A stretch of DNA of 53,674 bases from a virus: IMG/VR virus record IMGVR_UViG_3300022723_000142, positions 1 through 53,674 of that record. One strand, written 5' to 3'. The notes under the pieces were generated by a model. It was not told the origin of the DNA. It did no database searches and saw only the letters and a list, made by a program, of their open reading frames with translations. Below are positions 5,988-45,672 of this stretch, in pieces (the stretch's first letter is position 1; each line of letters opens with the position of its first letter). A program made the translations under genes and the position numbers.

Positions 5988-6707
5988 ATGTCCTTATACA
6001 CCGAAACCGACGGGCGGCTCATCATCCCCCCGCCGTCGCACATCTCATACACAAGCTGGCCAAGACGGGAATTTGTTAGTCGAACTGGCCAGTCTTGCTG
6101 GGAGGGTTTAGCGGATTATGTCGACAGCCTCAAAGTCAAGCTGTCGGTCACTCAGCGGCGTTTTGAATACCTTCGTGACCATCCCAACCAAACGCAGGAG
6201 AACAAAAAGGCTCAGGCGCGTTTTCTAAAAGAGCGAACCCATCTAGCCATGTGCCTGGATCATTATGAGCTGGTGCTGAGTAAGCAGACTAAGCGGTCTA
6301 GCGACTTAGCGCTAAAACATGCAGCCACTGCCGCTACGATGGCCAGAGAGAACAGAGAGTACATCTCGGAGCATTATAAAGCGATAAAAAAGTTCGATAA
6401 ATGTCGGGGGCACATCAAGGCCAACCGCGAAGCAATCTCTCGCAATCAGTTGGCCATTCGAGGGTTCATAGACAACGCTCACCGGCAATCCGCGATCGCT
6501 CACCAGGTAGAACAGAATTCTGATGCGATTGTGAGCTACGCAAAAACTTTGCAGGGAGTTCAGCGCAATGTGGCTGAGTTAAAGCAGTTGCTCAACGCGC
6601 GACCAGTTCAAAAGGTGAAGCCGCCCCCGCCCCGTGAAGAACCGTGGAACGCATCAGGGTATCGACCGCCTGATTTGGCGGGAACGTACATATTAGATAG
6701 AGAGTGA
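5988..6707 (+). CDS. Hypothetical, predicted coiled-coil protein
   Basis: 239-aa ORF. Overlaps the next gene's start by 4 nt, suggesting translational coupling. Confidence 0.6.
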   Translation: MSLYTETDGRLIIPPPSHISYTSWPRREFVSRTGQSCWEGLADYVDSLKVKLSVTQRRFEYLRDHPNQTQENKKAQARFLKERTHLAMCLDHYELVLSKQTKRSSDLALKHAATAATMARENREYISEHYKAIKKFDKCRGHIKANREAISRNQLAIRGFIDNAHRQSAIAHQVEQNSDAIVSYAKTLQGVQRNVAELKQLLNARPVQKVKPPPPREEPWNASGYRPPDLAGTYILDRE

Positions 6708-7288
6708 TCATGGAAGTAAGTGAATTAATTGAAAAATATCAGGCTGGGGAACGTGACTTCAGCTGGGCAGACCTCTGCGGGGCAAACCTCAGCCGGGCAA
6801 GCCTCTGCGGGGCAAACCTCAGCTGGGCAAACCTCTGCAGCGCAAGACTCAGCCGGGCAAACCTCAGCCGGGCAAGACTCAGCCGGGCAAACTTCTGCGG
6901 GGCAGACCTCTGCGGGGCAAACCTCAACGGGACAGACCTCAGCGGGGCAGACCTCTGCGGGGCAGACCTCTGCGGGGCAAACCTCTGCCGGGCAAGCCTC
7001 AGCCGGGCAAACCTCTGCGGGGCAAACCTCTGCGGGGCGCGAGGCAACGGCAGAGAGATTTGCTCTGCACAAATAGGGAAATACGATCTAATTTGGACGG
7101 CTGAAAATCTATGGATCGGCTGTCAGTCTGCACCATTAAATGTTTGGTGGAATCGAACCCCGGAGGACATTGAGCAGATAGAACAAGGCGCAGGCGCGCT
7201 CTGGACAAAACACAGGGACTTTATTTGGCAAATGGTCGACCAATTTCCGGCTACACCCACCAATGGCAAAGCCCCTAAAAAAGCGTGA
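6704..7288 (+). CDS. Pentapeptide-repeat protein
   Basis: About 18 consecutive A(D/N)LXX units ('ADLCGANLSRASLCGANLSWANLCSARLSRANLSRARLSRANFCGADLCGANLNGTDLSGADL...') followed by a ~70-aa non-repeat C-terminus. Confidence 0.85.
   Translation: MIMEVSELIEKYQAGERDFSWADLCGANLSRASLCGANLSWANLCSARLSRANLSRARLSRANFCGADLCGANLNGTDLSGADLCGADLCGANLCRASLSRANLCGANLCGARGNGREICSAQIGKYDLIWTAENLWIGCQSAPLNVWWNRTPEDIEQIEQGAGALWTKHRDFIWQMVDQFPATPTNGKAPKKA
6761..7037 (+). repeat. 15-nt periodic tandem repeat encoding the pentapeptide units
   Basis: Reiterated gcaaacctc(a/t)gc(c/g)gg units. The repeat creates shadow ORFs in three other frames. Confidence 0.9.
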
Positions 7289-7803: not shown

Positions 7804-8982
7804 GTGGTATGTGATTCGGCTTGCTGCATGGCCTTTCGTTGCGATCGCACCCCTATCGAAAATTATGAAGAACTGCCCGATGGCCGCTTGCGTGTTCGGG
7901 CAACATTTTCGCGTGTGGGCCCACTTGACTACATCCGCAGTGATGGCACGGTCCAGACTGAGTATTTAGATGCCGACGAACTATTCCGAGCTGATTCACT
8001 AAAGACCGCCGGACTAGCACCCGTCACTTTGGGGCATCCCGACGAAGGTTTTGTTACTCCAAAAAACTGGCGTAAATATGCGGTCGGAGCGTCCGGTTCT
8101 ACTATCACGGCTAACCGTCAAGATGGCTTGGTTGAAGTGGTGTTTCTCGTTGGCGATGAAGACGCGATCGCGGCTATCAAAGAAAAGAAGGCGACTCAAG
8201 TTAGCGCGGGCTATTCCACCACAGTTGAGCAGCGCAGCGATGGAAAGTTTTACCAAACCAATAGGCAATACAACCATTTGGCGCTAGTCGAGCGGGGTCG
8301 AGCAGGCCCTGACGTAAAAGTTCATTTTGATGGACTTGATGATTTTGCAGTGCAAACAGATGACTCTCAGGAGGTCAAAACCGACATGGCCAAATATAAG
8401 GGCATGGAAATGGATGAGAAGGCGGTGGATGCTTTTAAAGAAATGGAAGCTGACATGGCCAAGATGAAAGAAGACATGAAAGGCATGAAGTCGAAAAGCG
8501 ATGCTGCGGAAAGCTTCACCATTGACAAGCTCCAGGGCGAGATTGATGGTTACAAAACTCGCATTGATGCGCTTGAAAAGGAGCGTGATGGGCGTCTGGA
8601 TGCCGATGCAGTTGCCGCTCTGGCGACTCAGCGCTTGAATGCGTTTGAAGAGTGCAAGAGCTTCATAAAAGATGCCAAGTTTGACGCGGCTATTGAGCCG
8701 ATTGAGTGGCGTAAAGCGGCGATCGCTAGCGTCAATTCCAAGCTAAATCTAGATGGCAAGTCAGACGACTACGTGAACGGGATGTTCTCTATTCTGTCCA
8801 CGGCAACCGAAGCGGCAACTGTCAACGCTGAAAGCGAAGGCGCGAAGACATTTAAGGACGTTTTAGACGCGGCGGGTACGGCAGGCCATAGCGGTACCAG
8901 TGGTGAGCGTGCCGACGAAGATAAACAAGATGTTGACGATATTGCGGCGATCAATGGGCTCTTTTCTGGAGGTAACAAGTAA
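7804..8982 (+). CDS. Prohead protease/scaffold-like protein (DUF2213-like N-terminal domain, acidic coiled-coil C-terminus)
   Basis: 392 aa and first gene of the head block. 'VTLGHPDEGFV', 'VSAGYS' and 'YNHLALVERGRAG' resemble the DUF2213 family as I recall it. The C-terminal half is K/E/D/M-rich and scaffold-like. GTG start; the alternative is ATG 7828. Confidence 0.5.
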   Translation: MVCDSACCMAFRCDRTPIENYEELPDGRLRVRATFSRVGPLDYIRSDGTVQTEYLDADELFRADSLKTAGLAPVTLGHPDEGFVTPKNWRKYAVGASGSTITANRQDGLVEVVFLVGDEDAIAAIKEKKATQVSAGYSTTVEQRSDGKFYQTNRQYNHLALVERGRAGPDVKVHFDGLDDFAVQTDDSQEVKTDMAKYKGMEMDEKAVDAFKEMEADMAKMKEDMKGMKSKSDAAESFTIDKLQGEIDGYKTRIDALEKERDGRLDADAVAALATQRLNAFEECKSFIKDAKFDAAIEPIEWRKAAIASVNSKLNLDGKSDDYVNGMFSILSTATEAATVNAESEGAKTFKDVLDAAGTAGHSGTSGERADEDKQDVDDIAAINGLFSGGNK

Positions 8983-9488
8983 TGCCAATCACGACTTATA
9001 ACGACCTATCCGATGAGGGTCTGGTTGCGGGACAACTGCATACCAGCATCGTTAACGGTGCGAAACTGTCTGGCTATAACACGAGCGGCGGCGTTTTGGC
9101 GGCCGGTTTTGGCGCGGTCTGGACGGGCACCGGGAAGGAAGTTTCTTTGCCTTCTGGCGCTGGCAACTTTGCAGGTATCCTCACCCTGCCCTCTGTCGAG
9201 TATCGCGCTAGCTATTCCATTGATGCGGGTTCGCGCTTTGGCTGGCCAGATGATTACGAAGTGGCCTTGGCGGTTACTGATTCTTACGTAGTTTACGTAG
9301 ATGATACGGTGGCGGTTGGTGACCCGGTTTATTTCAATCACACTGCATCGTCTTCGGTGGTCGGCACATTCCGTAATGATGCCAATTCCTCAAATGCTCA
9401 GCTAATCAGCGGAGCTAAATTTATGTCAGCAGCGACGGGCACTGATTCCGCGCTAGCGCTGGCGATTGTAAATCTCAGTGCTAACTAA
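8982..9488 (+). CDS. Hypothetical head-module protein (possible decoration/cement protein)
   Basis: 168-aa ORF between the scaffold-like and capsid-like genes; its start overlaps the preceding stop. Confidence 0.4.
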   Translation: MPITTYNDLSDEGLVAGQLHTSIVNGAKLSGYNTSGGVLAAGFGAVWTGTGKEVSLPSGAGNFAGILTLPSVEYRASYSIDAGSRFGWPDDYEVALAVTDSYVVYVDDTVAVGDPVYFNHTASSSVVGTFRNDANSSNAQLISGAKFMSAATGTDSALALAIVNLSAN

Positions 9489-9502
9489 GGAGGTCTTTAA
9501 CC

Positions 9503-10483
9503 ATGCCTACTGGTGGAATTTTTCAGTCCCGGCATCTAGAGCGACGGGTGCGTCAGGTACTCCGGGCGCGGCGGCGAATGTTGCCGTTCTTCGGCGGCAA
9601 CCTGGTTCCAACTACTACTGATTTGCAACCGGGCACCCGCGAGCTAGTTCAAGACAAAGTGCTTGAATTTGGTGAGGCTCAGCTTATGGCGCAAGACGCT
9701 GATGATGTGCCCCTCGTTGAGATTAATGCCCGTGAAGACCGTTACCGGGTAGTGATGCCCGTTGCCGGTTATCCGGTCCGTTTTGGCGAAACGCTCGCGG
9801 AGAACGTCGCACGAGCCAACGGGATTCAGTACAACCCGACCGACATCCGCGCATCGGCTGTAATCCGAGCCATTGAAGAGCGGGCGAATAAGTTTACAGC
9901 GGTCGGCGATTCCACCATGAGCATCACTGGAATGCTCAACGATGCGAACGTTACGCCTGTTGATAGCAGCTTTGATCCGTTTGATGCGGGTTCCACTGCT
10001 GATGACATTGCTGATTGGTTTCTAACTTTGGTTGGGGATATCTTCAAGGATTCCAATAATGTCGAGTACCCCAACACGGCGTTAATCAGCACACCCTTAC
10101 ATGAGTTAATGACGCGGCGACGGATGCCGGATTCATCCGAAACCATCCTCAGCTATGTGGTCAAAACACAACAGGCGCGCTCCGCATTAATGCCGGGGCA
10201 ACGGTTGGAGAATATCGTTCCTTTGGTTGAAAGTGGGTCTGATTATCTCGAAGCTAACGGTGTAGAGACGGGCGGTACCAATAAAGATCGCATCGTGCTC
10301 TATCCGCTGGATGGCGAAGTGGTCGAGAGGCATATGATGTCGGGCGCGATCTCAGCGTTCCCTGATGACTGGACAGTGAACAAGGGAGCCCGGAAAATCT
10401 ACCCGATGTACTCCTTCCTGTCTCAGGTGATCATCAAGTTTCCCGGTGCATTCTCTTACATTAAGCACGCGAAGGAGGCGTAA
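9503..10483 (+). CDS. Major capsid protein candidate
   Basis: 326 aa, strong SD (AAGGAGG at 9487), position after protease/scaffold, size typical of HK97-fold capsid proteins. Confidence 0.55.
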   Translation: MPTGGIFQSRHLERRVRQVLRARRRMLPFFGGNLVPTTTDLQPGTRELVQDKVLEFGEAQLMAQDADDVPLVEINAREDRYRVVMPVAGYPVRFGETLAENVARANGIQYNPTDIRASAVIRAIEERANKFTAVGDSTMSITGMLNDANVTPVDSSFDPFDAGSTADDIADWFLTLVGDIFKDSNNVEYPNTALISTPLHELMTRRRMPDSSETILSYVVKTQQARSALMPGQRLENIVPLVESGSDYLEANGVETGGTNKDRIVLYPLDGEVVERHMMSGAISAFPDDWTVNKGARKIYPMYSFLSQVIIKFPGAFSYIKHAKEA

Positions 10484-10487
10484 TTGA

Positions 10488-10877
10488 ATGCCTCAAATCG
10501 TGATTTTCAAACCGGGAAATTGTTACCCGCCACTTAACCCGCAAGTTGGAATAGGCTTTGACCGACTACGGCTGAAGCCTGGGGCCAACCATATCAGCGA
10601 TGAACAATTCAATGTTTTGACGGCACATCCGAGCTATCAAAGCTACGTTGACCGCAAAGCGCTGATTGTCCATCACGCCGAAAAAGAGGTGCAGGCGGTC
10701 CCTCTTTCAGAAACACCGACCAACCTGGCAGGCTACAACGTGGATGACGCCGAAGACATCATCGACAACACTCATGATGTTGATGTACTGAAACGCTGGC
10801 TAGATAATGAACCCCGCAAAACGGCACGGACTGCCCTCAATCAACGAATCAAAGACCTACAAGGAGGTGATGCATAA
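10488..10877 (+). CDS. Hypothetical head-module protein
   Basis: 129-aa ORF, tightly packed with its neighbours. Confidence 0.55.
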   Translation: MPQIVIFKPGNCYPPLNPQVGIGFDRLRLKPGANHISDEQFNVLTAHPSYQSYVDRKALIVHHAEKEVQAVPLSETPTNLAGYNVDDAEDIIDNTHDVDVLKRWLDNEPRKTARTALNQRIKDLQGGDA

Positions 10878-11260
10878 TGGCTGTCGCTATGCAACGAATC
10901 GTAGAGGCTAATGCGCCTTTACTCATTAATCACTATCAGCCCAGTGGTGGTAATGAGGCATTTTTCATTGCGCCCTACGACCTAACTATAAAAGAGGTGC
11001 GCTATGCCCACGGCACCGCTGAAGGTGGCGCGTCAAATGTGCAGATTGAGCGACTCCAAGGCACCGAGGACGTGACGGCAGGTGACGACCTGCTGAGCAC
11101 AGCTCTTGATGGCAACGGGACCGCAAACACTGTGCAAACGGGCAACCTGGTTGGCAGCGCTGTTACCACTCTAAGTGCGGGCGATCGCTTAGCGGTTTAC
11201 TACTCAGCCAGTACAACTGTGGCCGAGGTTGCTATTTCAATTGTCGCCGAGAAAGCTTAA
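10877..11260 (+). CDS. Hypothetical head-module protein
   Basis: 127-aa ORF; ATG overlaps the previous stop (TAATG). Confidence 0.55.
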   Translation: MAVAMQRIVEANAPLLINHYQPSGGNEAFFIAPYDLTIKEVRYAHGTAEGGASNVQIERLQGTEDVTAGDDLLSTALDGNGTANTVQTGNLVGSAVTTLSAGDRLAVYYSASTTVAEVAISIVAEKA

Positions 11261-11622
11261 TGGCTATTACCACAGATTCTTTTCAGTCCGCGTTCCCTGA
11301 ATTTAGCGATACATCCATCGCGACCATTCAGGCACTTATTACGCGGGCTGAATTGCGGGTGGCGACGGCTGCGGCACTGGGAACAACTGAGGGGTTGCGA
11401 GATGAGTTGGTTGGGCTGTTTACGGCTCATTTGCTAACTATCAGCGATCGCTCATCCCAATCGGTAGGGGCGGGCGCAGTGGAAGAAATTGACATTGATG
11501 ATTTCTACCGTGTTCGATTTTCCCGTGATGGCAGCGGTGGCATGGGCATTGAATCAACGTCCTACGGCCAACAATATTCAGCACTGCTTAATCAAATTGT
11601 GATCCCTATTCGGATTTTGTGA
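11260..11622 (+). CDS. Head-tail connector candidate (DUF4054-like)
   Basis: 120 aa. The N-terminus 'FQSAFPEFSDTSIATIQALITRAELRV' resembles the DUF4054 opening motif as I recall it. Confidence 0.4.
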   Translation: MAITTDSFQSAFPEFSDTSIATIQALITRAELRVATAAALGTTEGLRDELVGLFTAHLLTISDRSSQSVGAGAVEEIDIDDFYRVRFSRDGSGGMGIESTSYGQQYSALLNQIVIPIRIL

Positions 11623-11623
11623 C

Positions 11624-11734
11624 ATGGCAACTACAACCGAAGTCGGCACATCCTTAACAACTATCCTCACGATTCCTGCAAAGTTTTCCAGTCGCATCGG
11701 CATCCAGATTGAAATTGACTACTCCCCGCTCTAA
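11624..11734 (+). pseudogene. 5' fragment of a small virion-module ORF interrupted by the TnpB element
   Basis: The ATG lies 1 nt after the previous stop and encodes MATTTEVGTSLTTILTIPAKFSSRIGIQIE. The frame then runs into the element's hairpin and stops at 11732-11734. Confidence 0.5.
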
Positions 11735-11880
11735 AGAGACGGGGATTCCCCGGTCACCCGGAGAGGTTTCTGCTTCGTAGCACCTGCCTTTCGAGATTTA
11801 CTCTCTTCGGGTCTTACGGTCGCTCCACAGACTGAAACCGCTTGCCCAGCGGCCAAGACATTTATCGCAGCGTTGACATC
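11699..11880 (-). ncRNA. Predicted omega (right-end) guide RNA of the TnpB element
   Basis: Inferred from known TnpB biology: the omega RNA spans the 3' end of tnpB and the right end, then reads ~16 nt into the flank. The right-end hairpin (11723-11745) overlaps the tnpB stop. No direct evidence of transcription. Confidence 0.3.
11722..11749. repeat. Right-end subterminal hairpin motif of the TnpB element
   Basis: CTCCCCGCTCTAAAGAGACGGGGATTCC; stem TCCCCG/CGGGGA. Confidence 0.8.
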
Positions 11881-12927
11881 CCGATCATGGTGAAATCCAC
11901 ATTCAGGACAATCCCACTCTCGAATATTGAGCGGCAATCGTTGAACGACATGCCCACAGTTCGAGCAGCGCTTGGAGGAGGGAAACCAACGGTCAATTTT
12001 GACCAGCTCCCGACCATACCATTCGCTCTTATATTCAAGCTGCCTAACCAATTCACCCCAGCTAGCATCCGATATGGATTGAGCCAGGGAGTGATTTTTC
12101 ACCATATTCTTCACAGCCAAGTCTTCAACGGCAATCACTTGGTTGTCGCGCACCAATTGAGTTGTCAGCTTGTGAAGGAAATCTTTGCGAGTATCCGCAA
12201 TTTCGGCCTGCAACTTGGCTACTTTAAGCCGTGCTTTATGCCGATTGCTGGAACCTTTCAATTTGCGAGACAAAGCTTTCTGCGCTCGACGCAGACGCTT
12301 GTACTTTGCCTTAAACGTTTTGGGATTAGCGATCTTCTCACCTGTACTCAGCGTGACCAGACTGCTAACACCCAAGTCAATCCCGACCTTATTGCTGGTG
12401 CCGGGAAGATGGTTGATTTCAACATCAACCAGCAAACTCACAAACCACCTGCCGGACGGATCAAGCTTGACCGTCACCGTAGATGGTTCAGCACCTTGAG
12501 GCAACTGCTGACTCCAACGAATCGGCAACGCTTCAGAGCATTTAGCAAGGAACAGTTCACCGTCTTTCCAGCGGAAGGCAGACTTAGTGAACTCGGCACT
12601 GCCACCATTTCGCTTCTTTTTGAAGTTCGGATATTTAGTCCGACCAGCCCAAAAATTAGCAAACGCCTTTTGGAGGTGCCTCAAACCTTGCTGCAAGGGG
12701 ACGCAGCTAACTTCATTCAGGAAGTTCAGCTCATCTTCCTTCTTCCACTCAGTCAGCAATGCCGACGTTTCTTTGTACCCAATTCGCTCTTGCCTTTCAT
12801 ACCAGCCTTCAGTCCTTGCGGCCAAAGCACGATTGTATACAAGACGGGTACAGCCCAACGTTCGCCGCAGCAGGTTTTCCTGCTCGGCAGTTGGGTAAAA
12901 ACGATAGCGATAAGCACGTTGAGTCAT
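11731..12927 (-). CDS. tnpB: TnpB (IS605 OrfB-type RNA-guided endonuclease)
   Basis: 398 aa. N-terminal 'YRYRFYPTAEQENLLRRTLGCTRLVYNRAL'. RuvC-I 'VGIDLGVSS'. RuvC-II 'VIAVEDLAVKNM'. Zn ribbon 'CSNCGH...CPECGFHHDRDVNAAINV' carrying the RuvC-III Asp. Confidence 0.9.
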   Translation of the reverse strand: MTQRAYRYRFYPTAEQENLLRRTLGCTRLVYNRALAARTEGWYERQERIGYKETSALLTEWKKEDELNFLNEVSCVPLQQGLRHLQKAFANFWAGRTKYPNFKKKRNGGSAEFTKSAFRWKDGELFLAKCSEALPIRWSQQLPQGAEPSTVTVKLDPSGRWFVSLLVDVEINHLPGTSNKVGIDLGVSSLVTLSTGEKIANPKTFKAKYKRLRRAQKALSRKLKGSSNRHKARLKVAKLQAEIADTRKDFLHKLTTQLVRDNQVIAVEDLAVKNMVKNHSLAQSISDASWGELVRQLEYKSEWYGRELVKIDRWFPSSKRCSNCGHVVQRLPLNIREWDCPECGFHHDRDVNAAINVLAAGQAVSVCGATVRPEESKSRKAGATKQKPLRVTGESPSL

Positions 12928-12985
12928 GTCTCACATTGTAGTAAATGCAATTTGAGAATGCGACTAAAGTCGCCGTTCGTTTTTC

Positions 12986-13013
12986 CTCCCCGGTCTAAAG
13001 ACGCGGGGTTTCC
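12986..13013. repeat. Left-end subterminal hairpin motif of the TnpB element
   Basis: CTCCCCGGTCTAAAGACGCGGGGTTTCC; stem CCCCG/CGGGG. Same orientation as the copy at 11722. Confidence 0.8.
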
Positions 13014-13034
13014 AAACGTTTTGAGGATCTTTCC

Positions 13035-13211
13035 ATGAATTTGCCGCGTATTATCAGAGCCGATTTGGGGGCTAATGTGATCCAATTTGGCGGCTTTACC
13101 TTGTATCGAGACAGGCTATGCACCTCTCAAGACGGGGTGCGGCTTTGCGGCCCTGACCACGGTTGGGTGTTAGCCTCGCCGTGGTGTGTATGTCGATGGG
13201 GTGGAGAGTAA
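13035..13211 (+). pseudogene. 3' fragment of the ORF interrupted by the TnpB element
   Basis: 58 codons (MNLPRIIRADLGANVIQFGGFTLYRDRL...CRWGGE) ending 4 nt before the next gene. Its frame is compatible with fusion to 11624.. after removal of the element. Confidence 0.45.
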
Positions 13212-13214
13212 TAG

Positions 13215-16208
13215 ATGGCAGCACCTAGCGTATCAGGCCTAACGTCGCTTCAAGAATTAGATTTCAGCGCCAACGGGACCGCAATGGTGGCGGCCTCTGG
13301 AGCGCTGACTTTTGATACAGATAGAAAAGATCGGATGCATTGTGATGTAACTCTAAACGATACAGAATGGTATGAGATATCCTTCACATCGTCTCAAGAT
13401 CTCACTGGGAAAAGTATTGTTTTCGCGTTTTATAACCGAATTCGGTATAAATCAGGAACATTTAGAGTTGGCCTGTTTTCAATCAGCAACACAGATTATC
13501 GACTTTGGCAATTTGAACCTGTGAGATTTCGGCAAATCGCTGTAATCCTGGATGCTGAGGATTTCGCATCTGAGGCAGCGGATACGGGCACATTCGATGT
13601 TACAAGTGTTGTTGGTATAAGGTTTCAATGGGTTTCCTTTAGAACAGACAATCACGTAAGTGCATCTGGAATTGAATGGGGGCAGGAAAATAACAACTCC
13701 CAAGATATCTTTAGTCTTCCTAATTCTGGCTTGACTTTATCCGAAGGTGAAAGTGGAAACCTATCAGAATTAAATGATATCGGAACGTATTTATCTGGCA
13801 ATGGTTTTTTAGAAGCCAACACAACAGGTTTTCACCAATTATTCGGGGAAAGCTTACTTGTTGGATTCCCGATCACGTTGGGTGGATCTGCGACACTAAA
13901 TCTAATCACTTCATTCAAAAATCTTGTTTTCCTAGAACGCTCAACAGCTAGTTCTAAACGGGCAATTTTCCCAAGTCCTTACAAATTGGATGTTGACACG
14001 ACCAACGCCACTACTATTGATAGAACGGTGTTATCGTCAGAAAGCAGTAATTTTTCATTTTTGTCAAATCGACAAACTAACAGTCTGTTTATTGATAGCC
14101 CAACGACAGTAGAATTAGCAGGCGGGACAACCATTGAAATTTCTAGCCCAACTGATACTGTGTCAGGCGGTGAAGCCTATTCTGGATTAAATATATTAGA
14201 CTCGACCGCTGGGATTGCTTTTGCTCCAAGCTCTACAGCTGCATTTGCTGGGGACAACAAAATTACCGGAACGCCTGATCATGCATTCAGTTTTGAATCT
14301 GGTAATGGTTGGACAGATGGCGATTCCGTCAATTTATCTTCTTTTGATCTATCCAGCGTTACGCCCGGAACTAATATGTTTCGGGTTGATATTGGGTCAT
14401 CGGCAGAATTTACTGTAACGGTTCCTATTGGGAGTGGATTAACAGCTAGTGATGTGACTGCTGTTAATGGTGAAACCGTGACAGTGCAAGAGCCGCAAGC
14501 CACAACAGCGATCAGTGGATTCCCCTCCGCAAACAACACTAATGGCGTTGCACCTAATCCCGTACTCGGTATTTATGATGCCTCTATCGGGGCAACGCCA
14601 GCGGGATATCTGGCGGGCCTTGAAACCAGTGACGCAGAGTACAGCAGGGGAACATACACAATTAATGCAGGCGATTATGCAGGTAGCTTAGCAAGTGGTA
14701 CTGAGATTCTAGTGGTGGGTGATGCAGTCGGTTGGCGACGAACGGCGGCGATCGCAATTGACACATCAGATCCTCCAGCAACGTTAGATTTATCGCCCGC
14801 ATTTGATGAGTTTTTAGACGAAGCTGGGGTTGCCTTTATTGGTGCATCGGCGGCATGTAGTGGCCTCAATTACAACCAATCTGATGCGCGGTTTGAACTG
14901 GATAGCGCTAGCGGTGGAGCATCTAGCCTTTATAATTTTGCAGGCGTCGCGACTCGTCAGGAAGAGTTGACTTCTAATCTGACAGGTTTGCAAAACTTTG
15001 AAACAAGCGTAATTCGGGCGATCCAGTACATCAGCAATGATTCGTATAGGCGAATCATCTTGCCCAATTCGCTATCAGTAGCAGCTGCGGAAGCGGCAGA
15101 AACAAGCCCGATCATCAGCGATTTTGCCTTGCTGCGAGACGACAACACAGACCCGTTTGATCATGGATTGAGCAGTACAGCATCAGGGTTGACGGATAGG
15201 CCGGAAGTGCTGATTAGATTTCAGGCACCAAACTCAAATGTGAATGTTGCCAGCATTGATACGGATGCGATAACCGCCGAAGCGATCGCCGCTGATGCGA
15301 TCGCAGAAATCAACGCCACAGTAGATGCAGCCCTGACAGACTACGGAGCTAACACGACCGCCCCCGACAACTCAACCATCGCGGCGATCGCCTCTAACGT
15401 GAGCGACATCATCGCTGACATTGCAGATATGCAAGGTACTGGCTTTGTCTCGGCTGACCATAGCCTAGAGGCTATTCGCGATCGCGGCGATGCAGCGTGG
15501 ATTACGGCAACCGGGTTCAACACGACAACACCCCCAACGGCAGCAGCGATCGCCTCCCAAGTCAGAACGGAACTCACCATTGAACTCGCCCGCATCGATG
15601 CCAACATTACAAGCCGTCAAGCAACTGTCACATTTCCCTCAAATTTTTCACTGTTGGCGATTGACGGCAGTGGACAAGTCACGGCGGAGAATATGCGCGG
15701 TACTGATGGAGCCAACACCATAGCCCCAGACAATGCCGCGATCTCTACTATCCTCATCGATACCGGAACCATGCTACCCGCTCAAATATCAGCACTAAAT
15801 AATCTGGCGATCGCTGATGTAGAAACGGCCCTCAGCAATTACGATGCTCCGGTCTATGCCACGCTGCAAACCTATGGCGATACAAATTGGGCGACGGCAA
15901 CCGGGTTCAGCACATTCGACGGAGACCTATCGGGCATCCCTGCTGCAGTGTGGGGATACAGCGGACGGGCTTTAGATGGTAGTCAGGCAACCGCGATCGC
16001 GCTCATTGACACCATCAATACCAACGTATCCAGTTGCCTCAGTGCTGCCGAAGCCGTGACAGATGGGAGGTTTGTGGAGAACTACACCGCGTCGACCGCG
16101 ATTCAGTATGACACCGATGGGACTGTGCGAACCGTGTTCGACTTGCTGGATGCTAACGGCGACCCGGCGATATCTGCACAAACCGCCGTTGAACGGAGGC
16201 CGCAATAA
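13215..16208 (+). CDS. Large fibre-like virion protein (putative tail fibre/host-recognition protein)
   Basis: 997 aa, S/T/A/N-rich. Internal duplicated segments '...GDAAWITATGFNTTTP...' and '...GDTNWATATGFSTFDG...'. SD GGAGAG. Confidence 0.45.
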   Translation: MAAPSVSGLTSLQELDFSANGTAMVAASGALTFDTDRKDRMHCDVTLNDTEWYEISFTSSQDLTGKSIVFAFYNRIRYKSGTFRVGLFSISNTDYRLWQFEPVRFRQIAVILDAEDFASEAADTGTFDVTSVVGIRFQWVSFRTDNHVSASGIEWGQENNNSQDIFSLPNSGLTLSEGESGNLSELNDIGTYLSGNGFLEANTTGFHQLFGESLLVGFPITLGGSATLNLITSFKNLVFLERSTASSKRAIFPSPYKLDVDTTNATTIDRTVLSSESSNFSFLSNRQTNSLFIDSPTTVELAGGTTIEISSPTDTVSGGEAYSGLNILDSTAGIAFAPSSTAAFAGDNKITGTPDHAFSFESGNGWTDGDSVNLSSFDLSSVTPGTNMFRVDIGSSAEFTVTVPIGSGLTASDVTAVNGETVTVQEPQATTAISGFPSANNTNGVAPNPVLGIYDASIGATPAGYLAGLETSDAEYSRGTYTINAGDYAGSLASGTEILVVGDAVGWRRTAAIAIDTSDPPATLDLSPAFDEFLDEAGVAFIGASAACSGLNYNQSDARFELDSASGGASSLYNFAGVATRQEELTSNLTGLQNFETSVIRAIQYISNDSYRRIILPNSLSVAAAEAAETSPIISDFALLRDDNTDPFDHGLSSTASGLTDRPEVLIRFQAPNSNVNVASIDTDAITAEAIAADAIAEINATVDAALTDYGANTTAPDNSTIAAIASNVSDIIADIADMQGTGFVSADHSLEAIRDRGDAAWITATGFNTTTPPTAAAIASQVRTELTIELARIDANITSRQATVTFPSNFSLLAIDGSGQVTAENMRGTDGANTIAPDNAAISTILIDTGTMLPAQISALNNLAIADVETALSNYDAPVYATLQTYGDTNWATATGFSTFDGDLSGIPAAVWGYSGRALDGSQATAIALIDTINTNVSSCLSAAEAVTDGRFVENYTASTAIQYDTDGTVRTVFDLLDANGDPAISAQTAVERRPQ

Positions 16209-16456
16209 TGCCCCTTTCTCCCCTCGGCATTGGTGGCAATTTATCTCCGCTAGGCCTGAATGCTGGACTCGTCCGGCTGTTGTTTTTTTGCCCTCCATTG
16301 TTTACCGCGATCTCTTATGAGCCAACGCTAACGACTGAGGCCTACGAGCCCGACCTATCCGCGATCGCCTATGAGATAGCATTAGTGGCGACTGAATACG
16401 ATATCGACCTGGCCAGCATTGCCTATGAACCGCTGTTAACGGAGGACAATTGCTGA
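16208..16456 (+). CDS. Hypothetical protein with short (A/S)I(A/S)YEP repeats
   Basis: 82 aa. 'ISYEPTLTTEAYEPDLSAIAYEIALVATEYDIDLASIAYEPLL'. The start overlaps the previous stop. Confidence 0.45.
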   Translation: MPLSPLGIGGNLSPLGLNAGLVRLLFFCPPLFTAISYEPTLTTEAYEPDLSAIAYEIALVATEYDIDLASIAYEPLLTEDNC

Positions 16457-16839
16457 TGAGTGGACTAAATGGAAGGACATTTAACGCAGGGGCCGCGATT
16501 CAGGCTAAGTTTCGATTTGAGCGCCAGGATGACAACGACGACCTGACCGGTGCCGCGATCGCGTTGCGCTTGTTCACCTCGTCGAGTGCAGCGTCTCCAG
16601 CGCTCACCCTATCGGTTGGCAGTGGCATTGAAGTTGAGACGGATTCCGCATCGGAGCAACTTTTCAAGGTAACTCTCACCTCAACTCAGGCAACCACGCT
16701 ATTAGATGGCGCAACCCGGCAGCTCATCAGCTATGTTTTTGCCATCACTCCCAGCGGCGGCAATCCTACCCGGTCCGACGATGCCAGCACATACAGCGGG
16801 GCGTTTACGATTCAGGCTGAGGCGTTGGGTGGTAGGTAG
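16450..16839 (+). CDS. Hypothetical virion-module protein
   Basis: 129-aa ORF overlapping the preceding gene's end. Confidence 0.5.
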   Translation: MLMSGLNGRTFNAGAAIQAKFRFERQDDNDDLTGAAIALRLFTSSSAASPALTLSVGSGIEVETDSASEQLFKVTLTSTQATTLLDGATRQLISYVFAITPSGGNPTRSDDASTYSGAFTIQAEALGGR

Positions 16840-16949
16840 TCGTGCAAAAAAACGCTGTCTATTTTGTGGTAAAAACTCACAATTTTGTTCCTTGATTTGC
16901 CCAAAAGTTTTGTTGAGCGGAAACCCCATACCGCGCATGAATAGCCGGG

Positions 16950-17195
16950 CTAAAGGATGGCTATGCTGATATCAATTGCCGAGATAGCGCCGCTCAACTT
17001 CTCAGCAAACCAGAACATCGCGTAATACCAATTTGAATCAAGGACGGCTAACACGTGTGAGTGAGCATCCCCCTTCTCTGCCATGTCGGGCACGTGGAAA
17101 TGATCTATCACCTTGTCCATCTCTCGCCAAACGGGTTCAACGACTAACCGCCTTATCTCTACCTGCAAACTCGGGTCTGCTTTCCGTCTGCCCAT
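16950..17195 (-). CDS. Hypothetical protein, second gene of an RHH-led bicistron
   Basis: 81 aa. The ATG lies 10 nt after the RHH stop, with a GAGG SD in between. Confidence 0.5.
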   Translation of the reverse strand: MGRRKADPSLQVEIRRLVVEPVWREMDKVIDHFHVPDMAEKGDAHSHVLAVLDSNWYYAMFWFAEKLSGAISAIDISIAIL

Positions 17196-17205
17196 AGTGA
17201 TCGCC

Positions 17206-17367
17206 TCACTTGCTCTCAGCTTTTTTGAGATATGCCTCTAAAGCTTCCTCGCACAGTTCAGACATAGTGCGATCAGCCCTGACAGCAGCGATTTTCAGCC
17301 GTTGTTTTAGTTCGTCGCTGATTTCTACTTGTAGTCGTGCCACTGGCTCTTCTGGTACTGAACGCAT
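17206..17367 (-). CDS. Ribbon-helix-helix (CopG/Arc-like) DNA-binding protein
   Basis: A 53-aa ORF below the track's size cutoff: MRSVPEEPVARLQVEISDELKQRLKIAAVRADRTMSELCEEALEAYLKKAESK. It shows a beta-strand/helix/helix pattern typical of RHH antitoxins and repressors. Confidence 0.55.
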   Translation of the reverse strand: MRSVPEEPVARLQVEISDELKQRLKIAAVRADRTMSELCEEALEAYLKKAESK

Positions 17368-17554
17368 AAATAGTAGTCCTACTTCACGGTTTTGTGATCC
17401 TTTCAGCCTTATGTTAGCACTACTTCTAAAAATGTGTTACTACTAGCAGTAGTTAAGAACGGCATAGGCACTCGCTTGGTACCGATTGGAACGAATAAAG
17501 CTGTACCAAACCCGTGCCGCCCTAGTACCCACAACGTTTAGAGGCGTTTCAACC

Positions 17555-18061
17555 ATGCAAAGTCTGCACTCATTTTGTAAGCAACACGATCTACCGAAAA
17601 CCAGCGTTAAGCGGTTTCTGAATGATGAGGGATTCGATACCAGCAGCGGGTTAGGCCGTGACGCGATCGCCGCTGCCCTGGTGGAATTTAAGCCTGCTGG
17701 TAGTGCATCAAAGCCTGATGTGTTGCCGCCCCCTGGCTATGCTGATCCTTTCGCTGGTATTGGTGCCGGGGGTGCGATGGTGCCGACTGGCTACGCAGCA
17801 ACCGATCGGAGTTTAGCCGTGGCGATGTCAGAGCAACGGGTAAAGCAAATCTGCCAAAGTTCATCAATTAACCAACAGCAGACCGTGCAAGCCGCTATCG
17901 AGAGCGGTAATCAGTTGGGTACGCAGTTGGGTGCATTCCTGGGAGAGCGCACCATACAGGCTGCTGAAATGCAGCGCCAACAGATGATTGAGGAGTATTT
18001 GCAGGCGCAAGGGGTGAATGTTGCCCCAAAGCCCGCTGCCGACGATGGCAGCGCCGCCTGA
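17555..18061 (+). CDS. Hypothetical protein
   Basis: The ORF track starts at TTG 17486. ATG 17555 (MQSLHSFCKQHDLPKTSVKRFLND...) is the first ATG. Possible N-terminal HTH. Confidence 0.45.
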   Translation: MQSLHSFCKQHDLPKTSVKRFLNDEGFDTSSGLGRDAIAAALVEFKPAGSASKPDVLPPPGYADPFAGIGAGGAMVPTGYAATDRSLAVAMSEQRVKQICQSSSINQQQTVQAAIESGNQLGTQLGAFLGERTIQAAEMQRQQMIEEYLQAQGVNVAPKPAADDGSAA

Positions 18062-18132
18062 TGTTGGCGATCTCTGTTGCCCTGCTGATCATTTTGATTT
18101 GAACGAATGAAAACCTTTCCGGAGAACGACCG

Positions 18133-18393
18133 GTGACTATTGAACGCGAAAAGCAACTGCTTGAAGAAATTCTCGACTCTTACGGCCTTGAGCCAATCGT
18201 AAACGGCTTGATGGTGCGCTATTCCCTTGATGAGGTTCAGACTGCTTTATCAGGTACGCCGTGTCCCTGGGAAGTCGAAAGCGATCGCGACCTGTGCGAT
18301 TCAATTATCTCCGCCTGCCAGCAGCCAAATACGCCCGATACAGGATACATGCACCCAACGGAGGGTTGGGTATCAAGCAACTGGCCTAGCTAA
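18133..18393 (+). CDS. Hypothetical protein
   Basis: 86-aa ORF with a GTG start. Confidence 0.4.
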   Translation: MTIEREKQLLEEILDSYGLEPIVNGLMVRYSLDEVQTALSGTPCPWEVESDRDLCDSIISACQQPNTPDTGYMHPTEGWVSSNWPS

Positions 18394-18445
18394 TCCCCCT
18401 CAATCAGTTTCCACGCCTCTTGAGGGGGGCATCCACCGTTACCCA

Positions 18446-19165
18446 ATGGACACAGCCATTATGAACCGACTACACCTGTTACTTACTGCCGGGGCCGCGA
18501 TCTCCCTGGCCAGCTCATCCGCGATCGCCAATGAACCTCCCGTCATTGATGACCGCATTCAAATGATTTACGACAATATCGAAGCATACCAACAGCTTGC
18601 CCTCGATGAATATGGCGTACCTGCATGGCAAGCCTTACCGCCTGCCAGCCGCCCTGATCTGGCTTTCCGCCCTGCCTGCCGCCAGCTCACCTATGGACAG
18701 ATTGAGGGTGAGCACGTTTGGCACTGGGATGGTGAACTGATCTACCGCTCGCCTAAAATATTGGACGCTGCCGACGCGGGCCTTTGTAAACGGGGGGCAA
18801 CTCACGCCGTCGAAGTACCCAAAGTATTGACCGCCGATGTGTGGTCACAATTCGAGAGCGCGATCGCGGATACGGGGCGGGCCGTTGCCGTCATCCCTGA
18901 GAGGGAAGTGGTGGAAGTGGTGGACGAAACCCCAAAGCCACCACAAGAACCCGTCGCCACCACTGCCCAGCCATCGACAGAAAGCCGTCAATTATTTCCT
19001 TTTATTTGGGTTGGGTTGGGCGCTGTTGCCTTTGCTGTTTTTGGCTGTTCACTGCGCAAAGGCGATAACCGGAAACGCATTTCTAAGCCGGCAACAGCCA
19101 CCACAAAAACGCCACAAGATCCGCCGCAAGAACACACCGAAATTACATACGACTTCGAGTTATAG
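18446..19165 (+). CDS. Secreted/membrane-anchored protein (signal peptide plus C-terminal TM helix)
   Basis: MDTAIMNRLHLLLTAGAAISLASSSAIA|NEPP has an AXA-type signal peptide. C-terminal hydrophobic 'LFPFIWVGLGAVAFAVFGCSL'. The track ORF from 18227 overlaps the previous gene and is probably over-extended. Confidence 0.5.
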   Translation: MDTAIMNRLHLLLTAGAAISLASSSAIANEPPVIDDRIQMIYDNIEAYQQLALDEYGVPAWQALPPASRPDLAFRPACRQLTYGQIEGEHVWHWDGELIYRSPKILDAADAGLCKRGATHAVEVPKVLTADVWSQFESAIADTGRAVAVIPEREVVEVVDETPKPPQEPVATTAQPSTESRQLFPFIWVGLGAVAFAVFGCSLRKGDNRKRISKPATATTKTPQDPPQEHTEITYDFEL

Positions 19166-19268
19166 CGCTGTGAGTGAGTGTGAGCACTCACAGTGAGTGC
19201 TCACAGATGCGCTGTGAGTGCCTTGTGAGTCGGCAGTTATCGCCCTGTAACCCCTATTTGGTGAACCC

Positions 19269-19781
19269 ATGAGATTAGACTTTGACGACTTAACCAACAC
19301 GCAACAAACCGCCCCTAAAGAACTGCTTTCTGAAAAAATTATGGGGCAAGTAAAAATTGCTTTTTTCGGAGTAGTGACGCTGACCTGTTTTGGGCTGGGA
19401 TTGAGCCAAGCTTTCAGCCCAGCCGCTCGACAAATCCGCTCCGAGATTCAGCAGCAGGAACAGCAACAAACTCGAGAATTAACGCTGCAGCAGCAACAGC
19501 AGCGCCATGGCCAGCAAGCCCGGCAGATTGCCGAAGAGCGCTATCGCGAGGGGTGCTTACTGGTTTACACCCTCGATGCCGATGGGAATGTGATTTCCCT
19601 GTACGAAGGCATGGCGGTAGTGGACTCGACGACGAATCAGCCCTTAGCCGATGGCACTACGGTTTGTGACCCCAACGGTGCAACCGCAGTCCTTGAGAAC
19701 GGGGGCAAGGTTGGCGTGATTGCCGTGACGCCTGAAAGCGCCATGGTTCAGCAGTTAATTGCAGAGGGTAAACTCCGATGA
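19269..19781 (+). CDS. Single-pass membrane protein with Q-rich coiled coil
   Basis: TM 'VKIAFFGVVTLTCFGLGLSQAF' followed by 'QQQEQQQTRELTLQQQQQRHGQQ'. Confidence 0.55.
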   Translation: MRLDFDDLTNTQQTAPKELLSEKIMGQVKIAFFGVVTLTCFGLGLSQAFSPAARQIRSEIQQQEQQQTRELTLQQQQQRHGQQARQIAEERYREGCLLVYTLDADGNVISLYEGMAVVDSTTNQPLADGTTVCDPNGATAVLENGGKVGVIAVTPESAMVQQLIAEGKLR

Positions 19782-20470
19782 CGAAAGCTAAGTATGGCGA
19801 CGAGCAAACCTTGTATAACCCTGGCAACGGGGGCAAGTATCAAGCTCTATTCTGGTTTTTGCGGTTGGCGCTGCTGTTGGTTTTGTGTGGGGTAATTATC
19901 CGAAATATCGAACCCTATGCCCAATGGTCGCAGGCGTGGCTTGGTTCCAATATGACGGGCTGGTGGACGCTGATACCCGGTGCCACTTGGGTAGTGGACA
20001 AGGTTTATCGGTTCTTTGGTATCGTGCTTTGGGCATTATTTCAAACCTTGGAAACGATCCCGCTGTTCCTGCTGGGCACTCGTTTCGGGTTGGGGGTGCT
20101 GATTGCCAGCTATGAGCAGCAGGATCAGCAGCAACGCAAGATTGACACCTATCCCACCGATGACGCGGTGTTGACGTTCCTTAAAAAGAAATACAACGCG
20201 ATGGGCTTACGGGCTCTCGATTTCTTCCGCATGGCAGCGCCGTTTGCCTATGCAGTGGACCTAATTGTGTGTTGGCAAATCTTTCCGCCGCTAAAAGACG
20301 GATACACCTGGTCTCAAGTCGTCATGGGTTGGAATTGGGGCGGTATCGCGTGGAGCAACGTGGTGAGCCTGGTCGTTACCCTGCTCGCCTTTGAGATGGT
20401 CGTCCTGTGTTGGATGCGTACCTCTGAAATGATTTTCACGATTCGCCGGGGGATTAAATCAAATGCGTAG
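19778..20470 (+). CDS. Polytopic membrane protein
   Basis: 230 aa with several hydrophobic segments (e.g. 'ALFWFLRLALLLVLCGVII', 'FFGIVLWALFQTLETIPLFLLG', 'VVSLVVTLLAFEMVVLCW'). ATGA overlap with the upstream gene. Confidence 0.6.
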   Translation: MTKAKYGDEQTLYNPGNGGKYQALFWFLRLALLLVLCGVIIRNIEPYAQWSQAWLGSNMTGWWTLIPGATWVVDKVYRFFGIVLWALFQTLETIPLFLLGTRFGLGVLIASYEQQDQQQRKIDTYPTDDAVLTFLKKKYNAMGLRALDFFRMAAPFAYAVDLIVCWQIFPPLKDGYTWSQVVMGWNWGGIAWSNVVSLVVTLLAFEMVVLCWMRTSEMIFTIRRGIKSNA

Positions 20471-24524: not shown

Positions 24525-24611
24525 GGAAAGTAACAGGAAGGTTCCCTCTAGTTTACTAAATACAGAAACACTACCTATACAACAGGCAAACTTGATTAGA
24601 GACCCTGTTTT

Positions 24612-25041
24612 ATACGGTGGCACAAAACTTTAGGGGTGGCACACTTCAAAAATGGCAAGTGTGCCACCCCTAAGCCCTTGATATACAAGGATTCTTTAGG
24701 GGGGTGTCACACATGGCACACTTCATCTGGGTCGGAGCGTGCAGAGTAAATTTTCTATGACGTGTAATGCTGTGCCAGTTGCCATTCTCTCTTTTAGAGA
24801 ATTTTGTCTAGTAAATTAAATCAGAAAGAAGTGTGCCATGTGTGACACCCTAAGCAAAACTCTTGATATGTATAGCTTTGAGGGTGGCACACTTCGAAAA
24901 TAGCAAGTGTGCCACCCCCCTGAAGTGTGACACTAAAATGGTATATTTAGATACTTTTCTCAGCTTAGCTTCATAAAAGGGCGTTGTGACAATTTGGAGC
25001 TTAGGAGAAATGTATTATGGCACAATACATGTGCCAGTTGC
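24612..25041. repeat. Non-coding structured module B: inverted homologue of module A, located between terL and the portal gene
   Basis: Hairpins at 24633-24670 and 24882-24918. Perfect 23-bp inverted repeat 24702-24724/24828-24850 around a 103-bp AT-rich core. About 10 TGGCACA/TGTGCCA boxes. The reverse complement aligns with 4150-4565 at roughly 80-90% identity by eye. Confidence 0.9.
25009..25030 (+). promoter_or_regulatory. TGTATTATG..ATACA palindromic motif (copy 2)
   Basis: AATGTATT-ATGGCAC-AATACAT. Related to the copies at 53543 and 51683 and contains a TGnCACAAT extended -10-like string. Confidence 0.35.
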
Positions 25042-44458: not shown

Positions 44459-45208
44459 GTGAAATTAATCAGCAGCATCGTGCTCCGGTTCGGCCCCAAC
44501 ACGCCAACAATCGGCGGTGAATCGATCGAGTTTCGTGTATTCGAGGGTGACCCATTAGAAGCTCCTACTAATGCCAAAGTGTTAGGAGGTGCCCCCGCTG
44601 TTGCCTGGAAGCTTGGCCGCATCCGTACGCTTTGCGATGTGGCGATCGCGGACCCGATGATCTCCGGCATCCACCTATCTCTGATTTTTGACCCAGCATA
44701 TGGGGAGCGCGGTGAACCCGCTTGGTTGATTAGCGACGGGGGCTATTATCCCTGCGACCTGAAACGAAAGGGCGGCGATTTGGTCACGGCTGGATACCGG
44801 CAAAGCAGCGGGGGAACCTGGCTCAATGGCGAACAGCTAGGGGCGGAAACTCAGCACGGGCAACTGCGGCCGACGCTAAAACGTATCTATCCTCAAGACA
44901 GAATCCTGTTGTTCCCATCTGTAAAAATATTGGTTTTTGAGGGATTGCACGAAACAGAATTGCCTTGCGATGTATGGGAGGGAGATTGGCGAGATCATCC
45001 GGTAGGAGAACTCATATCTAGCCGAGTGGCAAACGCGATCGCCGACACCCCTCAGAGAAGCGAGCCCTGGTTTGTTCCCCTCCTTCGAGCGGTGTGGGAC
45101 GGGCCCTATGATGGCGCTCCAAAGTGGGTGCGCGGGCTATGGCGGGTTGGGTTGATTGCGTCTGGAGTGTATCTGGCCCCGTTGATTATTGAATGGTTGG
45201 TGAAATGA
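44459..45208 (+). CDS. FHA-domain protein with C-terminal membrane anchor
   Basis: GTG start 7 nt after GAGGTG. FHA signatures: 'LGR' (GR), 'ISGIHLSL' (SxxH) and 'SSGGTWLNGEQL' (NG). C-terminal 'LWRVGLIASGVYLAPLIIEWLV'. Confidence 0.65.
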   Translation: MKLISSIVLRFGPNTPTIGGESIEFRVFEGDPLEAPTNAKVLGGAPAVAWKLGRIRTLCDVAIADPMISGIHLSLIFDPAYGERGEPAWLISDGGYYPCDLKRKGGDLVTAGYRQSSGGTWLNGEQLGAETQHGQLRPTLKRIYPQDRILLFPSVKILVFEGLHETELPCDVWEGDWRDHPVGELISSRVANAIADTPQRSEPWFVPLLRAVWDGPYDGAPKWVRGLWRVGLIASGVYLAPLIIEWLVK

Positions 45209-45672
45209 TTAAGCCCCAATGGATGAGCTTGCCAGAATGTAACCTTACCGTTGGCAGCGATCGCCCCCTCATCAGCCATCGGCCCTACTTGATTTGCCGG
45301 TTCAAGGATAATTCAGAACAACGGGCTCAGTTTGATGTTGACTACTGGGGCGTCTCCGGCTGGATTCATCGCGGGCAGGGAAAATATATCTGGCATTGTG
45401 GACTGCCCAACAATGACCGCATTTGGATACATGGCGACAATGCCCCCGCCACCGAATCTAAGGTGCTGGTATCGCTGGAGTGCGATCGCTTGTTGACTTA
45501 CGACAATCAAGAGGTCAGGGCCGGGATTTACTTTGGTCGCTGCAAGCCTGTCGTGGGTGGCTACGAATGGCGGTTAAAGGTTTCGCGGGTCAGCCATTCT
45601 TCAGGAAACCCTAGCGAGTACCATCGGGTGTTGTCTCGGTTTGTTCGGTGGTTGCCATTGCCAGGGATTTGA
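45205..45672 (+). CDS. Hypothetical protein, middle gene of the FHA-EAL operon
   Basis: ATGA overlap with the FHA gene stop and TGATG overlap with the EAL gene start. The track lists 45193 as the start. Confidence 0.5.
   Translation: MIKPQWMSLPECNLTVGSDRPLISHRPYLICRFKDNSEQRAQFDVDYWGVSGWIHRGQGKYIWHCGLPNNDRIWIHGDNAPATESKVLVSLECDRLLTYDNQEVRAGIYFGRCKPVVGGYEWRLKVSRVSHSSGNPSEYHRVLSRFVRWLPLPGI

Follow-up and report, generated by a model that had tools for sequence, protein, structure and literature searches.

The stretch of DNA analysed here comprises the whole of the IMG/VR virus record IMGVR_UViG_3300022723_000142, 53,674 nucleotides (nt) in length (hereafter the window), and the subject of this analysis is a mobile element that lies within the head module of this virus. 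Between positions 7804 and 21953 all genes of the window are encoded on the plus strand, with the sole exception of the minus-strand open reading frame (ORF) at 11731-12927, namely tnpB, just as the initial annotation had described it (antisense within a plus-strand structural array). With high confidence as to both identity and anatomy, we assign this gene to a non-autonomous, TnpB-only insertion sequence (IS) of the IS200/IS605 group (IS1341-type), which occupies 1,320 nt of the minus strand (11715-13034). Read along its own strand, the element consists of a left end (LE), tnpB, and a predicted omega RNA merging into the right end (RE), and it has neither inverted terminal repeats nor a target-site duplication. 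On its lower-numbered side it abuts the remnant of an interrupted plus-strand gene (11624-11714, codons 1-30 plus 1 nt), and on the other side a 58-amino-acid (aa) plus-strand ORF (13035-13211), the reality of which is doubtful and which is unrelated to the interrupted gene.

The tnpB coding sequence (CDS; 11731-12927, minus strand, stop codon at 11731-11733) specifies a protein of 398 aa that appears to be catalytically intact. It contains the HTH_OrfB_IS605 (PF12323), OrfB_IS605 (PF01385), and Cas12f1-like_TNB (PF07282) domains, each above the Pfam gathering cut-off, and it aligns over residues 3-361 with the structures of ISDra2 TnpB from Deinococcus radiodurans (8exa/8bf8/8h1j; E=6e-79), with which it shares the D-E-D triad of the RuvC domain and the zinc ribbon. 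The triad is kept as D184/E268/D350, equivalent to D191/E278/D361 of ISDra2, and the two CxxC pairs of the ribbon, CSNC(321) and CPEC(340), are both present. The initial annotation had recognised these RuvC and zinc-ribbon motifs and had proposed an intact TnpB-only IS200/IS605-type element in a phage virion module; domains, hairpins, and ends are all in agreement with that proposal. Relatives of this TnpB (n=529) were found in cyanobacteria only, in a scan of 185,579 species genomes, the closest being a copy in Oscillatoria sp. HE10JO (L001) with 93% aa and 87% nt identity. Several cyanobacterial genomes hold more than one copy, and the flanks of the copies diverge exactly at the element ends, both of which are signs of mobility; the IS lineage as a whole is abundant in filamentous cyanobacteria. 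The exact TnpB protein of the window was found only on contigs of this phage; no host copy identical to it was found.

Exactly antisense to tnpB and codon-aligned with it runs a second 398-aa ORF, starting at TTG (11842-13038, plus strand); tnpB has only one TTA/CTA/TCA codon. A similar antisense ORF is described for tnpB of A-1(L)/Anabaena (preprint, bioRxiv 10.64898/2026.02.14.705889). Because the full-length antisense frame is kept in only about 10 of 72 family copies, this ORF is probably a by-product of codon usage, and we dropped it as a candidate for a conserved gene.

The limits of the element can be read from its subterminal structures. A 28-nt direct repeat, reported in the initial annotation as well, is located at 11722-11749 and 12986-13013; its two copies are identical at 24/28 positions, have the same orientation, and both fold as hairpins of the form CCCCG(N)NNN-UUUA-NNN-CGGGG on the element strand, those of LE and RE differing by one compensatory change from G-C to C-G. 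The hairpin of the RE, CCCCG(U)CUC-UUUA-GAG-CGGGG (11724-11744, minus strand), is conserved in 36 cyanobacterial copies with many compensatory changes in its stem. The RE of all these copies preserves the arrangement ...GGAAUC-hairpin-AGGAUGUCAA, and straight after GTCAA the flanks are unrelated. Since the similarity among 36 independent copies stops at this point, the right end of the element is placed at 11715. The guide tetranucleotide of the RE (G_R), GAAT at 11748-11745 of the minus strand, pairs with the terminal cleavage tetranucleotide TCAA at 11718-11715, and the same combination of GAAT and TCAA recurs at every RE of the family (36 copies).

The LE (12928-13034, minus strand) shows the architecture that we designate 'class A', as do the LEs of the family copies L003, L011, and L053. 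It contains the LE hairpin (13008-12988) with its guide tetranucleotide G_L, GAAA, at 13012-13009, and a second hairpin, GGCGACUUUAGUCGC, at 12974-12960 of the same strand. Throughout the family, left ends begin at a conserved TYAT that is preceded by unrelated DNA. The IS608 pairing rule that connects guide and cleavage tetranucleotides was tested on the family copies in this analysis: GAAA or GAGA accompanies TCAT in 16 loci and AAAA accompanies TTAT in 13, with 2 exceptions, so that 29 of 31 loci fit. For the window, G_L GAAA therefore predicts TCAT, and this tetranucleotide was found at 13038-13035 on the element strand, at a spacing from G_L similar to that in the 'class A' LE of L003. 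The left boundary thus falls between this TCAT and position 13034. The same TCAT (13035-13038, minus strand) would serve as cleavage tetranucleotide of the LE and as transposon-adjacent motif (TAM), and on the plus strand it reads ATGA, coinciding with the ATG of the 58-aa ORF.

For IS608 of Helicobacter pylori, the end-code values (pairs of G and C tetranucleotides) were reportedly established by Barabas et al. 2008. The RE pair of the window, G_R GAAT and C_R TCAA, equals that of IS608 exactly, and the LE follows the same positional pairing rule (G1-C2, G2-C1, G4-C4). The two differ in the LE motif, TTAC in IS608 and TCAT or TTAT in the window family, and the window element has no tnpA and has hairpin sequences unrelated to those of IS608. 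The sequence comparison thus shows the IS608-type end-recognition code to be valid across this large cyanobacterial family.

Two architectures of the LE were observed within the family, a short one, whose CCGTCC...GGACGG hairpin stands about 50-75 nt away from the ATG, and a long one, which combines an RE-like CCCCG...CGGGG hairpin with another hairpin. The window element has the long form and its closest TnpB relative, L001, the short form, a difference that points to an exchange of ends among copies. Furthermore, a -10-like TACAAT (12934-12939, minus strand; TAGAAT/TATAAT in relatives) is conserved across the family, and it is located only 7 nt from the start codon of tnpB, which points to a transcript of this gene that is leaderless or nearly so. 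A promoter scan of 11550-13300 returned no sigma-70 consensus site and no -35 consensus.

At the insertion site, the IS lies on the 3' side of TCAT within a small accessory gene situated just after the DUF4054 head gene. The informative phage relatives are only two, the close L081, a 1,330-nt Logan contig, and the distant L084/L085. L081 has 84% nt identity to window positions 10671-11715 and carries the DUF4054 gene followed by an intact gene of 117 aa (P0002), whose product is 91% identical to that of the window ORF over residues 1-32. The homology with L081 ends at the RE junction, where the element strand of L081 reads ...CCATCATCAT/TCTCAACTTGAATGC (here and below a slash marks the junction). 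TCAT sits exactly at the junction there, and L081 represents the empty site, which the initial annotation had suggested seeking through alignment of related phages. For the window itself, the predicted uninterrupted site reads ...CAGATTGAAA/ATGAATTTGCC on the plus strand, and the RE-LE junction of an excised circle would read GTCAA/GGAAAGATCC on the element strand.

The P0002 family counts 28 representatives, matched near full length and 112-134 aa long, save for the 36-aa fragment of the window, one 82-aa partial sequence, and five longer proteins; residue N31 is invariant among them. The AlphaFold model of P0002 is a nine-strand beta sandwich (predicted local distance difference test, pLDDT, 95.3), and the only similar folds are those of uncharacterised phage proteins and the generic GOLD/PirA/CBM-like ones. 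Searches of the interrupted gene against Pfam and PHROG gave no hit.

These data do not agree with the earlier view that the IS splits one ORF into 11624-11734 and 13035-13211 and that its excision restores a frame of 88-93 codons. The left portion is the N-terminus, residues 1-31, of a protein of about 115 aa (the called 36-aa ORF at 11624-11734 ends inside the IS), the right portion is unrelated to it, and once 11715-13034 is removed the two ORFs are out of frame. With the IS so removed, the frame continues through ...IQIEN (...IQVEN in L081) to a stop 13 codons later, giving a product of 44 aa that ends in ...IQIENEFAAYYQSRFGG. The remaining, C-terminal ~85 codons of the interrupted ~115-aa gene are present nowhere in the window; local alignment of 13035-13230 with the remainder of the L081 gene scored no better than shuffles, and the flanks of 80 host loci showed no homology either. 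We also considered the fused 93-aa ORF as a protein and rejected it, the only matches being to its own 58-aa half and to P0002 (first 32 residues). In the distant relative L084/L085, the slot between DUF4054 and the gene of 997/1078 aa holds an unrelated 36-aa ORF; since the slot is variable, the lost gene was probably dispensable.

As for the 58-aa ORF on the other side, it has no homologue besides an identical copy and no Pfam or PHROG hit, and its product is rich in Cys and Trp. A Shine-Dalgarno-like GAGGA borne by the LE (13023-13027) precedes the ATG at 13035 by 7 nt, and this ATG is itself the complement of the TAM. The ORF could therefore be translatable only owing to the insertion.

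At the opposite end of the element, a predicted omega-RNA scaffold of about 145 nt (11715-11859, minus strand; approximate at its 5' limit) overlaps the 3' end of tnpB. Its helices, all on the minus strand, are located at 11853-11837, at 11831-11827 paired with 11773-11769, at 11805-11793, at 11766-11748, and at 11744-11724. In an alignment of 34 cyanobacterial copies, nucleotide conservation over approximately 11859-11715 is higher than in the upstream CDS, and RNAalifold recovered 25 pairs from the same copies, 16 of them compensatory. When one hairpin was added by eye (29 pairs in all), pairing reached 90.4%, versus 35-47% when the partners were slid by 1-3 columns; double-change cells amounted to 117 (36 in shuffles), and the observed score was reached by none of 500 shuffles. 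By its position and conservation, this 3' structure can be taken as the putative omega-RNA scaffold. No Rfam family matched at gathering thresholds, the IS605-orfB motifs included. RAGATH-18, the guide-RNA family of IS607 TnpBs (PMC11061315), gave a sub-threshold match at 11767-11831 of the minus strand (24.1 bits, E=0.12, the threshold being 44.9 bits), which is to be read as resemblance only.

In the ISDra2-type architecture, the omega-RNA scaffold is followed by a flank-derived guide just 3' of the RE. By this analogy, the predicted guide of the window element is 5'-UUUCAAUCUGGAUGCCGAUG (11695-11714, minus strand), which runs antisense to the interrupted gene at codons 24-31; the initial annotation was right in that the flank that would supply it, from 11714 downwards, is phage sequence. 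The predicted TnpB target consists of a 4-nt TAM, expected to be TCAT, followed by TTTCAATCTGGATGCC. A search for TCAT plus guide found no match in the window, and with up to 3 mismatches allowed the RE junction, reading TCAA, was the single hit. A filled site with TCAA instead of the TAM fits the expectation for a homing nuclease, which would leave its own copy uncut.

From these observations we build an explanation of the locus that extends to its function, with homing as a step that we infer, and as a whole we consider it likely to be right. A host Y1 transposase (TnpA) acting in trans would have inserted the single-stranded IS, on the minus strand, just 3' of TCAT in the accessory gene. 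Subsequently, an IS-associated deletion, for example by recombination with a second copy, would most likely have removed the rest of the target gene; a pre-existing mosaic junction or a nuclease-associated module exchange could alternatively account for the missing 3' part. Omega-RNA transcription, reading through into the flank from 11714 downwards, would supply the guide, and the resulting ribonucleoprotein would cut TCAT+UUUCAAUCUGGAUGCC, i.e., the uninterrupted or freshly excised phage allele, its own locus, with TCAA, being spared. If an IS-bearing genome then served as template for repair, the element would be kept or would spread. IS605-family TnpB has been found to cut vacant sites, leading to transposon retention (PMC10055086, PMC8612924), and RNA-guided homing against uninterrupted alleles is accordingly plausible for the window element. 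The drive advantage in co-infection that the initial annotation had suggested would follow from such published TnpB biology and may be kept as a reasonable hypothesis.

The Pfam domain Y1_Tnp was found in none of the 40 larger window ORFs scanned (those of at least 100 aa), which agrees with the earlier statement that the window has no tnpA, and the element would therefore depend on a host transposase; it is by the absence of tnpA in cis that the non-autonomous tnpB-only subgroup is defined. Several points weigh against this explanation and have to be kept in mind. The guide of about 16-20 nt, UUUCAAUCUGGAUGCC..., presumes read-through into the flank and takes both its length and the 5' end of the omega RNA by analogy with ISDra2, and TCAT as the TAM is predicted from the DNA-level TnpA code together with one empty site, that of L081. 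Between L081 and the guide, 5 of 20 positions (2, 7, 8, 11, and 17) are mismatched, so the L081 allele would probably escape cutting, and no natural guide target was observed. When a single sequence was folded, the RNA had no extra stability over shuffles (z = -0.44), its structure being supported by covariation only. Finally, neither a second IS copy nor a solo LE or RE was found in the window, which leaves no second copy to back a deletion between two ISs as the cause of the loss of the 3' part of the target gene.

How much of the functional part is needed depends on the weight given to competing explanations, among which an inert passenger deserves the most attention. Here the IS would have come from the host through TnpA in trans and a dispensable gene would have been lost, with no homing or benefit involved. 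This accommodates the variable slot (an unrelated 36-aa ORF in the distant relative), where loss was probably tolerated, as well as the restriction of the exact TnpB protein to contigs of this phage and the failure of the conserved left-flank 23-mer to find, in metagenome and viral contigs, an empty-site allele matching the guide. It is less easily reconciled with a TnpB that is fully intact and an RNA scaffold that matches the family consensus in all helices, with the retention of transposons through cutting of vacant sites by IS605-family TnpB (PMC10055086, PMC8612924), or with the strong transcription of the tnpB of cyanophage A-1(L) in infection (bioRxiv 10.64898/2026.02.14.705889), and we regard it as unlikely, if far from fanciful. 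A more ambitious version, in which the phage TnpB and its omega RNA act in mixed infection as an RNA-guided intronless homing element that cuts IS-free relatives at TCAT plus guide, the homology break and the missing 3' part being its footprint, appears improbable to us. If that version were true, repair would copy the IS along with neighbouring DNA, and the footprint would reflect nuclease-driven module exchange or IS-mediated deletion. It could also be asked whether the TnpB has been domesticated and is no longer mobile, serving as a TldR-like RNA-guided repressor or as a means by which the phage attacks hosts or competing phages, given that TnpB derivatives with non-transposon roles are known and that tnpB is common in phages (homologues in 422 GenBank phage records by tblastn, Gifsy-1 GipA and many mycobacteriophages being among the hits). 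The marks of TldR are lost catalytic residues and lost ends; unlike the nuclease-dead TldR, the window TnpB has an intact RuvC triad, and both transposon ends, the TnpA recognition code, and the terminal TCAA are preserved, while the guide corresponds to the adjacent flank only and has no other target in the window. We therefore hold domestication to be very unlikely.

Two further alternatives concern the anatomy of the locus. The initial annotation gave the element a length of 1,306 nt (11715-13020) or 1,321 nt (11714-13034), either version cleanly splitting an ORF of 88-93 codons. Each pair turned out to be half right: 11715 is the RE, as fixed by 36 copies, and 13034 is the LE according to both the code and L081, whereas 11714 is one base off and 13020 is not compatible with G_L. 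Joining 11714 to 13021 does open a frame of 93 codons, and there is a TCAA at 13024-13021 on the element strand; yet cleavage of the LE at TCAA would need G_L GAAT where the window has GAAA, the search with the fused 93-aa ORF found no protein across the 11714/13021 junction, and the true gene is of about 115 aa, with its C-terminal ~85 residues absent. This version thus fails. An assembly chimera, i.e., a host IS mis-joined to phage reads, also comes to mind, as IS repeats often break or mis-join metagenome assemblies. However, an independent Logan assembly is 100% identical to the window over 16,256 nt (16.3 kb), the IS included, and because it carries the same arrangement the element is real and no artefact of assembly. 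The junctions, moreover, are the exact biological ends (TCAT/LE and RE TCAA/) at a site that has the TAM in L081, and the exact TnpB protein is confined to phage contigs, so that we give this possibility next to no credence.

The genome that carries the element is that of a complete, otherwise uncharacterised cyanophage. The ends of the record are an exact 127-nt direct repeat (1-127 and 53548-53674) around a unique part of about 53.5 kb, and this exact terminal overlap indicates a circularly assembled, complete genome of ~53.5 kb. The window contains 50 HIP1 sites (GCGATCGC), a signature typical of cyanobacteria and their phages. It encodes a DUF5906 primase, a DUF2213 protein, a cement protein, a major capsid protein, and a DUF4054 protein, and further a portal protein fused to an inorganic-pyrophosphatase-like (InPase) domain, an intein-containing terminase, a tape-measure protein, PolA, and a helicase. 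The major capsid protein has at best 24-26% identity to that of any GenBank phage, and megablast of window positions 8000-20000 against GenBank phages gave no match. Viral contigs scanned with the 997-aa protein and the major capsid protein contained no close relative, and metagenome contigs scanned with the major capsid protein gave no match; the conserved left-flank 23-mer was absent from the viral and metagenome contigs scanned, and a search with the DUF4054 protein returned only its own cluster.

Some other features of this phage deserve mention. The large terminase gene (25130-27775, minus strand) contains an intein that bears a LAGLIDADG homing-endonuclease domain (Intein_splicing, 8e-20; LAGLIDADG_3, 6e-10) and interrupts the gene as a second selfish element in the phage besides the IS. 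The portal-InPase fusion (22023-24623, minus strand) occurs also in the distant relative L084/L085. Three plus-strand genes encode an EAL-domain protein of the cyclic di-GMP phosphodiesterase type (45648-46853; 1e-36), an FHA-domain protein (44459-45208), and a pentapeptide-repeat protein (6704-7288). In L083, an unrelated cyanophage-like contig, an EAL gene adjoins tail genes, and an intein-containing protein (653 aa) is present too. The region 6896-6978 of the pentapeptide-repeat gene is internally repeated at an offset of about 60 nt, and bases 1-83 of contig L082 match both 6956-7038 (100%) and 6896-6978 (89%).

TnpB elements are already well known in phages, and the case reported here is well defined but ordinary, representing no new kind of system. 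With ISDra2 it has in common that the guide-RNA scaffold, as predicted here, overlaps the tnpB 3' end and the RE, that the guide would derive from the flank, and that the presumed TAM equals the LE cleavage motif. ISDra2 differs in carrying tnpA, and its scaffold is not recognisably similar in sequence to that of the window; its motif is TTGAT, whereas that of the window would be TCAT. The cyanobacterial IS1341-type copies, such as those of Oscillatoria sp. HE10JO (L001) and Pseudanabaena biceps PCC 7429 (L007), agree with the window element in TnpB (72-93% aa identity), RE, helices, and GTCAA; the window copy differs in residing in a phage genome and in having the longer 'class A' LE, L001 having the short one.

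Among cultured cyanophages, the Microcystis phages MaMV-DL01/DL02/DH01 (Fukuivirus) carry TnpB with 68% aa identity at three places per genome. The copy examined in MaMV-DL02 reads TCAT/CGAAAAT...GAAACCCCG, with GAAA in its LE and an RE that ends in GGATGTCAA at the junction, and it belongs to the same IS family as the window element. Anabaena phage A-1(L) has a tnpB identical to copies in its host, and infection induces this gene (bioRxiv 10.64898/2026.02.14.705889); for the window tnpB, by contrast, no identical host copies were found. The window phage represents a lineage different from the cultured cyanophages with tnpB, and here an empty-site relative defines the target gene. A further parallel is offered by the free-standing homing endonucleases of phages, whose nuclease genes, according to Barth et al. 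2023 in the account given by PMC13565253, stand at boundaries of genetic exchange. Similarly, the window nuclease stands exactly where the homology of related phages stops, and it would cut the allele without it; unlike in phage homing endonucleases, an RNA would direct it, with the insertion site determining the target, and its mobility depends also on a transposase.

In summary, this cyanophage offers a cleanly resolved tnpB-only IS, with exact ends, a predicted TAM, a scaffold supported by covariation, and an identified target gene. It may thus provide, with its TAM and a target of 16-20 nt, a concrete system in which to study phage-borne TnpB homing in co-infection.

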